A DNA stretch of 64,000 bases from the NCBI RefSeq assembly GCF_044647545.1, contig NZ_CP172818.1; one strand, written 5' to 3'. The notes under the pieces were generated by a model. That model ran no database searches. It was given only the letters and a program-made list of their open reading frames with translations, and was not told where the DNA came from. Below, one piece after another: positions 19,327 through 59,271 of the stretch (position 1 is its first letter; each line of letters opens with the position of its first letter). Source of the DNA: Escherichia coli. GTDB lineage: Bacteria > Pseudomonadota > Gammaproteobacteria > Enterobacterales > Enterobacteriaceae. Position numbers and translations under genes: made by a program.

Positions 19327-19394
19327 TGTGTTTAGACAGTTTCATGAACGTAAACGGTTGCTTTTTACTCTGGCGAGCGAAAGGAGAAACACTG

Positions 19395-46287: not shown

Positions 46288-46518
46288 TCAGACCCCGTTG
46301 GCAAGCCGCGTGGTTAACTCATCCATAAAATATCGCGCAATGGCGGGCATCCCCTTTCGCCCGGCAAATAAAGCATACAACGGTCTGGGTATGCCGCTCC
46401 ACGGTGCAAACAGGCGCACCAGTTCACCGTTCGCAAGCCCCTGTTTACAGGCAAATTGAGGCAATAACGCCACGCCATTCAACCCAACCGGGACGCGAAC
46501 TCGCCGAGCAAAATGCAT
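46288..46518 (-). pseudogene. yqfE: LysR-family regulator remnant (C-terminal fragment only)
   Basis: 76-codon frame resembling the C-terminal co-inducer domain of a LysR regulator; no N-terminal HTH region upstream. Confidence 0.6.
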
Positions 46519-46584
46519 TAGCGCAAATCCCTGATCTTATTACACAAGTATTTAATCATTATCTTTAATATAAAAGGAGTTATT

Positions 46585-46845
46585 ATGTCTATTAAGCAAA
46601 ATTTATTTGCCGCATTATTTCTTTGCACTCTCACAGGACACGCATTTGCCGCAACCGAGATACACAAACCGGACAATAATCTTGAACAGTTATCAAAAGT
46701 GAGCATGTCCACACACAATAGCAATCCAGCGGGCGTTGAAAGCCAAATCAAAAGAGAAAGCGGAAGAGTTACAAGCCAGCAATTACTACATCAGTTCTTT
46801 CTCCGTAAAAATTATATCCACGCCACTGTAATTTTCTATAAATAG
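46585..46845 (+). CDS. hypothetical small secreted protein (86 aa, predicted signal peptide)
   Basis: ATG preceded by strong RBS AAAAGGAG; N-terminal hydrophobic stretch ending in AFA; AT-rich; no recognised homolog. Confidence 0.4.
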   Translation: MSIKQNLFAALFLCTLTGHAFAATEIHKPDNNLEQLSKVSMSTHNSNPAGVESQIKRESGRVTSQQLLHQFFLRKNYIHATVIFYK

Positions 46846-47528
46846 CCCCTCTGTTTAACGGAAGCATGGAATTATTCCATGCTCCTCTGCCAAAATGAAA
46901 TAAAAAATGAAAAAAGCTAATCTTACAGGTACGTTGGTTTGCTTTGTCGCATGCCTTATTTTTTTGTCGTCCGGTGATATTTTTCGTGAAAAGCCAATCG
47001 CTCTAATATGGTTCCTTCGACAAAACATACTCTTTTTTACGGGAACTCTTGCGTGGTGTCTGATGACGCTGACGATGTGTTTATCGTTGCGTTCATCATG
47101 GCTTAACAAAGTGCTGGGCGGTCTGGATAAAGTATGGCGAATCACATAAGTGGGCAGGAATATGCGCCATAGCGTTTGCTTTCGCCCACTGGCTGGATGA
47201 AAAATTACCCCAGTTATTCGTCGCCTTTGGCTGGCTTACTCACCCTGGTAAAATCGTTGATATTAACCTGACGCCAGTACAAGAAAATTGGCTTCATGCG
47301 GGACTGTTAGCGGGTGAATGCGCAATGTTTATTATTATAGCGATGGTTTGCGTATCTCTTAGCAAAAGAGTTCCCTATCATTTATTTCATCTTGTTCACC
47401 GTTTGTTCCCCGTCTTTTATCTGGCAATTGCCTTTCATGTGTTTACTGCTTTGTTTAAATCATACTGGTGGAACTCCTGCTGCGTATTTATTAATTTTAA
47501 TTACTATTCCGGGCGTCTTTGCGGCTTT

Positions 47529-47537
47529 CATTTCGCT
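47529..47537. repeat. IS1 target-site duplication, left copy (CATTTCGCT)
   Basis: Identical 9-mer directly flanks both IS1 ends. Confidence 0.8.
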
Positions 47538-47552
47538 GGTAATGACTCCAAC

Positions 47553-47942
47553 TTACTGATAGTGTTTTATGTTCAGATAATGCCCGATGACTTTGTCATG
47601 CAGCTCCACCGATTTTGAGAACGACAGTGACTTCCGTCCCAGCCTTGCCAGATGTTGTCTCAGATTCAGGTTATGTCGCTCAATGCGCTGAGTGTAACGC
47701 TTGCTGATTACGTGCAGCTTTCCCTTCAGGCGGGATTCATACAGCGGCCAGCCATCCGTCATCCATACCACGACCTCAAAGGCCGACAGCAGGCTCAGAA
47801 GACGCTCCAGTGTGGCCAGAGTGCGTTCACCGAAGACGTGCCACAACCGTCCTCCGTATCCTGTCATACGCGTAAAACAGCCAGCGCTGACGTGATTTAG
47901 CACCGACGTAGCCCCACTGTTCGTCCATTTCAGCGCAGACAA
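47553..47942 (-). CDS. insB: IS1 InsB-like transposase C-terminal ORF
   Basis: 129 aa ending ...[54 protein letters not shown]; overlaps the insA-like ORF in a different frame. Confidence 0.7.
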
Positions 47943-48252
47943 TCACATCACTGCCCGGCTGTATGCGCGAGGTTACCGACTGCGGCCTGAGTTTTTTAAT
48001 AAAGTGACGTAAAATCGTGTTGAGGCCAACGCCCATAATGCGGGCGGTCGCCCGGCATCCAACACCATTCATGGCCATATCAATGATTTTCTGGTGTGTA
48101 CCGGGTTGAGAAGCGGTGTAAGTGAACTGCAGTTGCCATGTTTTACGGCAGTGAGAGCAGAGATAGCGCTGATGTCCGGCAGTACTTTTACCGTTACGCA
48201 CCACGCCTTCAGTAGCTGAGCAGGAGGGACAACTGATGGAGATGGAAGCCAC
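47827..48252 (-). CDS. insA: IS1 InsA-like ORF, continuing in frame into the N-terminal part of InsB (141 aa)
   Basis: Starts [40 protein letters not shown] (InsA zinc-finger/HTH) and runs past the usual A6C slippery region. Confidence 0.7.
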
Positions 48253-48307
48253 GGGAGCACCTCAAAAACACCATCATACACTAAATCAGTAAGTTGGCAC
48301 CATTACC

Positions 48308-48316
48308 CATTTCGCT
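48308..48316. repeat. IS1 target-site duplication, right copy (CATTTCGCT)
   Basis: Identical 9-mer directly flanks both IS1 ends. Confidence 0.8.
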
Positions 48317-49082
48317 GCTGAAATTCAAACGGTAGTAAAAACAAGCATCAGGCTACCATTAAAAACATTGTTAACCATCCAGGACAAATTACCGAAGTCA
48401 CCCTGGAACTGGAACATGCCATCGACTATTCTCCGGGGCAGTTTGCATTCTTAACGTTCGCACACAGTAAAGAATCTCACCCTTTTACTATCGCTTCATA
48501 CACCAAAGAGAAGAACACGTTGCGCTTTGCCATCAAAAATTTAGGGGATTATACCTCTACCCTTGCATCCTCGATAAAAATCGGCCAGTCCGCCTTCGTT
48601 GAAGGGCCATGGGGAAAGTTTGATTTAGACTCTCCCTTGCTCCCACCAGGTCTGGATAGCAGGAGGCATCGGCATTACCCCCTTTATCGCCCAGCTTGAG
48701 TATCGTAAACATCATGGCGCGTCCTCTGTTCCTGTGGATCTCTGGTATTACGTCAGCCGAAGCGAGGATGCCTGGTATGTTGATAAACTGACCTCACTTT
48801 GTGCCCAGGCCAGGGTCACACTGCATCTGCTTGATGCGCATAAAGGTGAGCGCCTACAGGCGCACTATCTTACTGATAAAATAGCAAATAAAGGTGACAC
48901 CCATTTCTGGTTTTGCGGCCCACAGAGTTTTGCCAAAGCGCTCAGCAAAGGGTTATATGAAAATGGGATTGCCAGCCAAAACTTCCATTACGACCGTTTT
49001 TGTATGCGTTAAATGCTCTGTACCCAACGCAAAATTGTGTCATAGTGCAGGAAAAAGCATTTACCAGGAGCAGACAACAGCA

Positions 49083-50179: not shown

Positions 50180-52323
50180 ATGTCTAACGTGCAGGAGTGG
50201 CAACAGCTTGCCAACAAGGAATTGAGCCGTCGGGAGAAAACTGTCGACTCGCTGGTTCAGCAAACCGCGGAAGGGATCGCCATCAAGCCGCTGTATACCG
50301 AAGCCGATCTCGATAATCTGGAGGTGACAGGTACCCTTCCTGGTTTGCCCCCTACGTTCGTGGCCCGCGTGCCACTATGTATACCGCCCAACCGTGGACC
50401 ATCCGTCAGTATGCTGGTTTTTCAACAGCAAAAGAGTCCAACGCTTTTTATCGCCGTAACCTGGCCGCCGGGCAAAAAGGTCTTTCCGTTGCGTTTGACC
50501 TTGCCACCCACCGAGGCTACGACTCCGATAACCCGCGCGTGGCGGGCGACGTCGGCAAAGCGGGCGTTGCTATCGACACCGTGGAAGATATGAAAGTCCT
50601 GTTCGACCAGATCCCGCTGGATAAAATGTCGGTTTCGATGACCATGAATGGCGCAGTACTACCAGTACTGGCGTTTTATATTGTCGCCGCAGAAGAGCAA
50701 GGTGTTACACCCGATAAACTGACCGGCACCATTCAAAACGATATCCTCAAAGAGTATCTTTGCCGCAACACCTATATTTACCCGCCAAAACCGTCAATGC
50801 GTATTATCGCAGACATCATCGCCTGGTGTTCCGGCAACATGCCGCGATTTAATACCATCAGTATCAGCGGTTACCATATGGGTGAAGCGGGTGCCAACTG
50901 CGTGCAGCAGGTAGCATTTACGCTCGCTGATGGGATTGAGTACATCAAAGCAGCAATCTCCGCCGGGCTGAAAATTGATGACTTCGCTCCTCGCCTGTCG
51001 TTCTTCTTCGGCATTGGCATGGATCTGTTTATGAACGTCGCCATGTTGCGTGCGGCACGTTATTTATGGAGCGAAGCGGTCAGTGGATTTGGCGCACAGG
51101 ATCCGAAATCACTGGCGCTGCGTACCCACTGCCAGACCTCAGGCTGGAGCCTGACTGAACAGGATCCGTATAACAACGTTATACGCACCACCATTGAAGC
51201 ACTGGCTGCAACGCTGGGCGGTACTCAGTCACTGCATACCAACGCCTTTGATGAAGCGCTTGGTTTGCCTACCGATTTCTCAGCACGCATTGCCCGCAAT
51301 ACCCAGATCATCATTCAGGAAGAATCAGAACTCTGCCGCACCGTCGATCCACTGGCCGGATCCTATTACGTTGAATCGCTGACCGATCAAATCGTCAAAC
51401 AAGCCAGAGCCATTATCCAACAGATCGACGAAGCCGGTGGCATGGCGAAAGCGATCGAAGCAGGTCTGCCAAAACGAATGATCGAAGAGGCCTCAGCGCG
51501 CGAACAGTCGTTGATCGACCAGGGCAAGCGTGTCATCGTTGGTGTCAACAAGTACAAACTGGATCACGAAGACGAAACCGATGTACTTGAGATCGACAAC
51601 GTGATGGTGCGTAACGAGCAAATTGCTTCGCTGGAACGCATTCGCGCCACCCGTGATGATGCCGCCGTAACCGCCGCGTTGAACGCCCTGACTCACGCCG
51701 CACAGCATAACGAAAACCTGCTGGCTGCCGCTGTTAATGCCGCTCGCGTTCGCGCAACGCTTGGTGAAATTTCCGATGCACTGGAAGCGGCATTTGACCG
51801 TTATCTGGTGCCAAGCCAGTGTGTTACCGGCGTGATTGCGCAAAGCTATCATCAGTCTGAGAAATCGGCCACCGAGTTCGATGCCATTGTTGCGCAAACG
51901 GAGCAGTTCCTTGCCGACAATGGTCGTCGCCCGCGCATTCTGATCGCCAAAATGGGCCAGGATGGGCACGATCGCGGCGCGAAAGTGATCGCCAGCGCCT
52001 ATTCCGATCTCGGTTTCGACGTAGATTTAAGCCCGATGTTCTCTACACCTGAAGAGATCGCCCGCCTGGCAGTAGAAAACGACGTTCACGTAGTGGGCGC
52101 ATCTTCACTGGCTGCCGGTCATAAAACGCTGATCCCGGAACTGGTCGAAGCGCTGAAAAAATGGGGACGCGAAGATATCTGCGTGGTCGCGGGTGGCGTC
52201 ATTCCGCCGCAGGATTACGCCTTCCTGCAGGAGCGCGGCGTGGCGGCGATTTATGGTCCAGGTACGCCTATGCTCGACAGCGTGCGCGACGTACTGAATC
52301 TGATAAGCCAGCATCATGATTAA
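50180..52323 (+). pseudogene. scpA: methylmalonyl-CoA mutase ScpA (Sbm) with a 1-nt frameshift near 50348-50352
   Basis: First 57 codons in one frame (ORF 50159-50593), the rest including the conserved [22 protein letters not shown] in the -1 frame (ORF 50377-52323); span is 1 nt short of a 714-aa ORF; C-terminal B12-binding region present. Confidence 0.75.
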
Positions 52324-59137: not shown

Positions 59138-59271
59138 TCAATATTCCTTTTCAACTGACTCAAAATGGAGAAATACACTCCGCCGCCTTATGACGGGCAG
59201 TCTGACAAGGGTAAACAATAAAGCATAATTTTGCCAAATAGATCACAGATTTCTCATCTGTATCCTCTGGC

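Follow-up and report, generated by a model that had tools for sequence, protein, structure and literature searches.

An Escherichia coli NOX-like flavocytochrome gene inactivated by a clade-wide IS1 insertion, with additional frameshifts that are private to one assembly and probably artefactual

The window, a 64,000-nucleotide stretch of the Escherichia coli chromosome around serA-rpiA-argP-scpA, contains a gene that resembles ferric reductases and is broken at several places (46907–49012). The earlier note had regarded this gene as an old pseudogene and had taken the number of its lesions as an argument against sequencing error. We asked which protein the gene encoded, and whether its lesions result from slow decay, from a single inactivation, or from faults in the deposited sequence.

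The insertion sequence IS1 (47538–48307) and one copy of its target-site duplication (48308–48316) were excised in silico before alignment. The remaining 1327 bp align over their full length with the intact coding sequence (1326 bp) of E. coli IMT16316 (contig L001, 6427–7752), which encodes a protein of 441 residues (WP_001571863.1), and the two are colinear at approximately 99.3% DNA identity. The ATG at 46907 and the stop codon at 49010–49012 agree with the annotated coding sequence of IMT16316. The RefSeq label of WP_001571863.1 is "ferredoxin reductase family protein". The intact protein contains the Pfam domains Ferric_reduct (residues 45–174, 7.5e-14), FAD_binding_8 (residues 225–297, 1.3e-8), and NAD_binding_1 (residues 324–420, 4e-7). 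Its closest solved relative is SpNOX (8qq7; phmmer E 1.2e-26, residues 136–425), and it also matches NOX5 (E 3.8e-9). The excision suggested in the earlier note thus yields one colinear homologue, the three domains of which are all matched through the intact protein, and the proposed identity as a flavocytochrome of the ferric-reductase/NOX type is borne out. The intact ortholog that was to be sought is present within E. coli itself, where it belongs to a four-gene island between rpiA and argP.

The sequence filters for bacterial NOX proteins of Hajjar et al. 2017 (mBio, PMC5676040) include an FAD motif H[PSA]F[TS][LIMV], two His-x12-14-His pairs that are placed on different transmembrane helices and spaced by 20 residues or more, and between three and seven transmembrane helices that are predicted to precede the dehydrogenase domain. 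The intact ortholog contains HPFTI as the FAD motif, GIGITP as the motif of the NADPH filter of the same study, and H80/H94 and H164/H177 as the two histidine pairs. A crude hydropathy scan showed about five hydrophobic segments within residues 2–217. Based on the colinear match to the annotated coding sequence, the Pfam domains, the similarity to SpNOX, and the FAD, NADPH, and bis-His filters, the locus is an E. coli accessory gene with a predicted flavocytochrome b of the NOX/FRE type as its product. The family has already been described, and the finding therefore carries little weight for biology. The intact protein may have six transmembrane segments and is predicted to bind two b-hemes, one by His80 and His94 and the other by His164 and His177, whereas the FAD and NAD(P)H domain that follows the membrane part would be located in the cytoplasm. 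By homology to the NOX of Streptococcus pneumoniae, the intact protein may take electrons from NAD(P)H and relay them by way of FAD and the two hemes, with the acceptor at the periplasmic side. The candidate acceptors of a NOX-like protein are O2, Fe3+, or a partner protein.

SpNOX of S. pneumoniae (PDB 8qq7, 8qt6) shares with the E. coli protein the organization in a single chain, in which the transmembrane domain is of the ferric-reductase type, contains two bis-His heme sites, and is followed by FAD and NAD(P)H domains, and the HPF(T/S), GGIGITPF, and CGP motifs of the two proteins align. However, the sequences are distant, SpNOX has 400 residues rather than 441, the N-terminal helices of the E. 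coli protein align only weakly, and the copy of the E. coli gene in the window is broken. MsrQ (YedZ) with Fre, NOX5, and yeast FRE1 belong to the same ferric-reductase-domain superfamily and share bis-heme transmembrane electron transfer, but MsrQ lacks a fused FAD/NAD domain, and the eukaryotic members NOX5 and FRE1 contain additional regulatory domains. Hajjar et al. 2017 (PMC5676040) list a sequence of E. coli KTE10, L2VL28, which passes the FAD, NADPH, and bis-His filters. A protein named EcNOX was cloned in that study, but the heme spectra were stronger for SpNOX and PaNOX, and EcNOX was not taken further. L2VL28/EcNOX is probably the same gene as the intact ortholog of the gene in the window. 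We found no published activity data on the E. coli NOX-like protein itself.

The full island between rpiA and argP contains genes for a divergent LysR regulator, an FMN-dependent azoreductase-like protein, a DUF1471 protein (BhsA/YhcN/RclB-like), and the NOX-like protein. A search of the four proteins against NCBIfam gave no match above the curated cut-off, and none of them has an equivalog name. The gene content suggests a role of the island in redox stress. The window lacks 1346 bp that comprise the 5′ part of the LysR gene and most of the azoreductase gene, and the remnants of the two genes are joined at 46480/46481. An equivalent fusion is known from E. coli K-12, in which the pseudogene yqfE (b2915) occupies the identical chromosomal site and consists of the 3′ remnant of the island LysR regulator fused to the 3′ end of the azoreductase gene. 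The junction in the window is base-identical to that of K-12, yet its flanks are island-type: to the right of the junction, the bases of the window are not those of yqfE. In K-12, the DUF1471 and NOX-like genes are also gone, whereas the window retains both of them in a broken form.

The NOX-like gene does not read through in a single frame in the deposited sequence, because it carries IS1 and four frameshifts (Table 1). The alignment to the intact coding sequence thus supports the presence of several independent lesions in the sequence as deposited. None of the heme, FAD, and NAD motifs is missing, but they lie in different frames, as had been noticed before. Lesion 1 shifts the frame one codon before the heme ligand His80 and leads to a stop at 47147–49. 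Of the frame breaks that had been proposed, those near 47141–47147 and 48630–48655 are correct to within 10 bp. The third, which had been located at the IS1 junction, resolves into two lesions, a loss of two nucleotides at 47472 that had been overlooked and a gain of one at 48326. The neighbouring DUF1471 gene contains a private compensating pair of indels, +A at 46750 and -G at 46805, which are 55 bp apart and rewrite approximately 18 residues.

Table 1 Features of the NOX-like gene and adjacent island remnants (positions in the window; residue and codon numbers of the intact ortholog)
Feature	Position	Strand	Basis or remark
LysR regulator remnant, 3′ end	46288–46480	-	within 76-codon remnant 46288–46518
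Azoreductase remnant, 3′ end	46481–46568	+	
DUF1471 (BhsA/YhcN-like) periplasmic protein gene	46585–46845	+	same island
Codons 1–77, first two hydrophobic segments, original frame	46907–47139	+	alignment to intact coding sequence
Substitution C>T, A76V	47133	+	also in independent Logan contig L008
Lesion 1: +A at 47140 with T>C at 47143 (GATTAC > GAATCAC)	47140–47143	+	frameshift at codon 78
Heme-binding core, now read in frame +1	47145–47438	+	
H80-x13-H94 heme pair	47145–47189	+	motif scan; within Ferric_reduct match
H164-x12-H177 heme pair	47397–47438	+	motif scan; aligns to SpNOX heme histidines
Lesion 2: -GA at 47472 (GGGAAA > GGAA)	between 47471 and 47472	+	frameshift at codon 189
Target-site duplication, 9 bp, CATTTCGCT	left 47529–47537; right 48308–48316		
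IS1	47538–48307	transposase on -	inserted after codon 210
Lesion 3: +C (ATTAAAC > ATTCAAAC)	48326	+	frameshift at codon 215
FAD-binding region	48327–48626	+	
HPFTI (FAD motif; residue 265)	48478–48492	+	codons intact in window
Lesion 4: +A at 48627 with T>G at 48628 (TTTTAC > TTTAGAC)	48627–48628	+	frameshift at codon 315
NAD(P)H-binding region, including stop 49010–49012	48629–49012	+	
GIGITP (NAD(P)H motif; residue 327)	48665–48682	+	motif scan
Substitution G>A, C355Y	48750	+	real sub-clade marker
CGP motif, NAD(P)H-binding region	48914–48922	+	

The inserted element has the properties of IS1: the element type of approximately 768 bp, inverted ends starting with GGTAATG, InsA and InsB′ reading frames, and a 9-bp target-site duplication. 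The copy in the window carries -GC at 47840, +4 (AATA) at 47998–48001, and T>C at 48049, and the two indels account for its length of 770 rather than 768 bp. The four-nucleotide insertion is located at the A6C slippery site and fuses insA to insB′; the two-nucleotide deletion then breaks the fusion. The exact product of a 141-residue open reading frame of IS1 is present in the protein collection.

The same insertion site with near-identical IS1 is found in the clone-mate Ecol_881, in ECONIH1, and on contig L010, and the annotations of Ecol_881 and ECONIH1 place an IS1-family transposase there. In clone-mates, the two halves separated by IS1 are already annotated in RefSeq. An identical 201-bp IS1 junction is present in at least 28 complete genomes. 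Of the 247 gene-bearing complete genomes, 198 have an uninterrupted target site, and most of the remaining 49 probably also carry the junction. The left half of the split gene (217 aa) is in frame on 901 contigs, and the right half (238 aa) is in frame on 509 contigs with C355 and on 393 with Y355 (P0046, including ECONIH1). Since both C355 and Y355 occur among the right halves of IS1-split copies, the insertion predates the C355Y substitution. The junction is identical throughout the clade, and therefore the IS1 insertion is the original, real knockout of the gene in the clade of the window and occurred as one event.

Among the disruptive lesions, only IS1 is common to other genomes. The four frameshifts were found in none of the 247 gene-bearing complete E. 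coli genomes and in none of the contigs that encode the in-frame halves, and the best matches of the two gene halves among complete genomes did not exceed 99.3% and 99.6%, respectively. The lesions give rise to open reading frames that the collection either lacks or contains as singletons from one NCBI contig of 4,499,902 bp (WP_400164851.1, WP_400164852.1). The 80-residue frame made by lesion 1 is absent from the collection of 15 billion proteins, and WP_400164852.1 is the rewritten DUF1471 product of the window. The A76V and C355Y substitutions are real, because they were seen in independent contigs and genomes, and the sequences that share them lack the private indels. The contigs L006 and L007, which have 48750A in common with ECONIH1, do not contain 48326+C, 48627+A with its T>G, or the loss of C in scpA. 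The contig with 47133T (L008) does not contain 46750+A, 46805-G, 47140+A/47143, or 47472-GA. Contig L014 also lacks 48326+C. The frameshifts are thus confined to one assembly, and the inference from several lesions to the absence of sequencing error does not hold: several lesions in one gene are by themselves no argument against sequence error.

The comparison with clone-mates shows how narrowly the changes are clustered. In 64 kb, the window has no substitutions relative to Ecol_881 outside 47133–48750, and all 5 substitutions and 8 of the 12 small indel events are located within 46750–48750. The distribution is non-uniform with P ~1e-9 for indels and ~6e-8 for substitutions. At each private indel, ECONIH1 has the sequence of Ecol_881 and not that of the window; it differs from the window in just two other substitutions, which lie outside the locus. 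An origin from Shigella, which IS1 and the pseudogenes might suggest, was rejected because of this near-complete agreement with Ecol_881 and ECONIH1. Such a comparison separates a real clade-wide lesion from assembly-private ones at structural breakpoints.

The identity to Ecol_881 outside 47133–48750 leaves no time for slow decay, and on this sequence comparison gradual decay of the gene in the window appears to be excluded. An old pseudogene would have gathered IS1 and several frameshifts independently over a long time. The five disruptive lesions in the sequence as given agree with such a history, as does the state of the species, in which approximately 95% of E. coli lack the locus and other lineages have independent knockouts. 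However, no frameshift is common to any other genome or contig, only two substitutions relative to intact alleles are confirmed, and the genome background is identical to that of clone-mates. The ratio of changes also disagrees with long decay: there are 8 small indel events to 5 substitutions within 2.3 kb of the window, compared with 64 substitutions per indel in an old frameshift allele of the same gene from another lineage. We therefore regard the interpretation as an old pseudogene as very improbable. We also considered whether the locus had been imported from another lineage in which the pseudogene is older, and rejected this because the substitutions number only five, IS1 occupies the same site, and the flanks do not differ. 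The chance that the gene still functions, with its halves expressed separately (as an MsrQ-like heme domain and a Fre-like reductase) or by recoding at the breaks, is close to nil. The two halves stay open on hundreds of contigs of the IS1 clade, and two-component systems of a ferric reductase domain and a reductase exist; MsrQ is discussed in PMC5676040. Nevertheless, each half contains two frameshifts in the window and reaches stops soon after them, slippery or recoding signals are not evident at the frame breaks, the regulator and azoreductase are missing, and both substitutions that have occurred since the IS1 insertion are non-synonymous.

The frameshifts in the gene, the DUF1471 and IS1 indels, and the 1346-bp loss are private to one assembly and are probably an assembly artefact, which may have arisen if, for instance, the consensus was guided by a reference or patched and its insert was poorly polished. 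The lesion cluster is located wholly inside 46543–49026, the sole segment that K-12-type genomes lack. The four private events elsewhere in the window (606, 30359, 33008–10, and 59265–8) are positioned within a few base pairs of the other four breaks in the alignment of the window to K-12, and the change in scpA corresponds to the K-12 sequence minus one G. The assembly contig has 4.50 Mb, compared with 5.1–5.3 Mb in relatives with the same IS1 insertion. To the right of the 46480/46481 junction, a stretch of 12 codons distinguishes the window from each of the 12 other yqfE alleles that were retrieved from the cluster, and import of the junction by recombination from a yqfE-type donor was rejected for this reason. 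Leftover K-12 bases were sought at the scars and none were found. K-12 was therefore discarded as a literal assembly template, and reference-guided assembly is something that we infer.

The alternative, that the private lesions are real and very recent, is unlikely but ranks next. It supposes that, after the IS1 knockout in the clade, a single strain lost the 1346 bp and rapidly gained indels and substitutions within a short stretch of dead DNA, for example by error-prone repair synthesis around a break, and that small deletions occurred at unstable REP or hairpin sites elsewhere. It is consistent with the confinement of the private events to dispensable or non-coding DNA, with the independent confirmation of two of the five substitutions of the cluster (47133T and 48750A), with the slippage-like character of several indels (A3>A4 at 46750, GG>G at 46805, and (GC)2>(GC)1 at 47840), and with the deposited record having passed RefSeq annotation, as indicated by the WP_ accessions. 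On the other hand, the other ~60 kb contain no substitutions, so that an indel rate far above the substitution rate would be needed, and the density of events in the cluster is approximately eight times that of other non-coding DNA. Half of the indels are untemplated or complex (for example lesions 1 and 3, and TTAAG > TTAATAAAG). A de novo deletion would have to reach the exact yqfE junction, at which there is no microhomology, and the scars coincide with K-12-type breakpoints. A specific form of this alternative, a real localized and indel-rich mutation shower of approximately 11 events in 2.3 kb beside a de novo deletion by which the ancient yqfE junction arose again with base precision, in a strain that does not otherwise differ from its clone-mates, is improbable. 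If true, the shower would represent natural clustered frameshift mutagenesis associated with break and repair in E. coli, and the endpoint of the rpiA-argP deletion would be recurrent and driven by a mechanism.

Several observations speak against an artefact. The private events avoid intact coding DNA, and four of the five outside the island are intergenic (P ~2e-4 if uniform); real mutations filtered by selection would show the same avoidance. The intergenic sites lie in REP or hairpin regions, which are naturally unstable. A simple K-12-guided consensus fails to explain a recovered insert of 2.5 kb beside the missing 1346 bp and a 101-bp segment. The poly-C tract of scpA varies from C4 to C8 among independent short-read assemblies.

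The gene is present in 247 of 5426 complete E. coli genomes, and approximately 95% of E. coli are without the island and are left with the yqfE remnant as in K-12. The intact four-gene island is a reasonable target for asking about the role of bacterial NOX homologues in Enterobacteria. The locus has been repeatedly lost or broken across E. coli, and because of the repeated knockouts and losses in several lineages the idea of decay fits the species, albeit loosely. In another lineage, which is diverged by approximately 5% and has the old frameshift allele considered above, a single-nucleotide deletion at nt 992, in a run of C5 within the codons for GIGITP, divides the gene into fragments of 339 and 92 residues, which are present on 141 and 54 contigs, respectively. 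One genome of this lineage contains an extra, independent IS1 at a different site. In Shigella boydii, the gene is represented by a fragment of 276 residues.

The NOX-like gene of the island, interrupted by IS1 in the window, has been knocked out repeatedly. In a second E. coli lineage, represented by comparison loci L021, L024 and L025, the gene carries a common −1 mutation at nucleotide 992, located in a C5 run within the codons of the NADPH motif, and this allele encodes fragments of 339 and 92 amino acids. Comparison locus L023 contains an extra, independent IS1 in the gene, inserted at a different site, and the Shigella boydii gene is reduced to a 276-residue-long fragment.

The LysR regulator and azoreductase genes are truncated at window position 46480/46481, where 1346 bp, comprising the 5' part of LysR and most of azoreductase, are gone. 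The junction, GCCACGCCATTC joined to AACCCAACCGGG, is identical base for base to that of yqfE, the K-12 remnant at the island site. Despite the identical join, the right flank of the junction is of the island type. The 76-residue-long open reading frame created at the junction is a singleton (WP_400164851.1). In K-12 (locus L005, 3636–3697), 62 bp of unrelated sequence stand where the window (46543–49026) has the DUF1471 and NOX-like genes. Genomes of the yqfE type and the island type diverge by ~15–17% over the 62 bp to the right of the yqfE junction. The background divergence is far lower, roughly 2%, and the comparison suggests that the split is ancient or that the island is of foreign origin.

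Several lesions are private to the assembly of the window, being absent from its clone-mates Ecol_881 and ECONIH1. The DUF1471 gene contains an inserted A at 46750 and a deleted G at 46805, spaced by 55 bp, so that its 86-codon frame stays open with ~18 residues altered; the resulting product is a singleton (WP_400164852.1). The IS1 copy, on the minus strand, contains a 4-bp insertion (47998–48001) directly upstream of the A6C programmed-frameshift site, which places insA in frame with insB' as a fused transposase, and a downstream 2-bp deletion (47840), which disrupts insB. Both changes are private. Outside the island, four private small deletions are intergenic and at REP or hairpin sequences, each a few base pairs from a break in the alignment of the window to K-12.

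Intergenic private small deletions outside the island
Window position	Change (bp)	Location
606	−2	intergenic
30359	−1	intergenic
33008–33010	−101, leaving a 3-bp scar	intergenic
59265–59268	−7, complex	intergenic

In contrast to the private lesions, uacT is a real pseudogene at the clade level, since it is annotated as frameshifted in both clone-mates, to which the window is identical across the gene. Relative to K-12, uacT (~19390–20830) contains a 10-bp deletion, with gaps at 20484–20486.

The poly-C tract of scpA (50343–50348) is C5 in the window, which shifts the frame and leaves a 648-residue-long open reading frame. The tract is C6 in the clone-mates and CCGCCC in K-12. Other assemblies with the identical 648-residue frame, including contigs from the short-read collection Logan, contain C4, C5, C7 or C8; the tract is hypervariable or error-prone.
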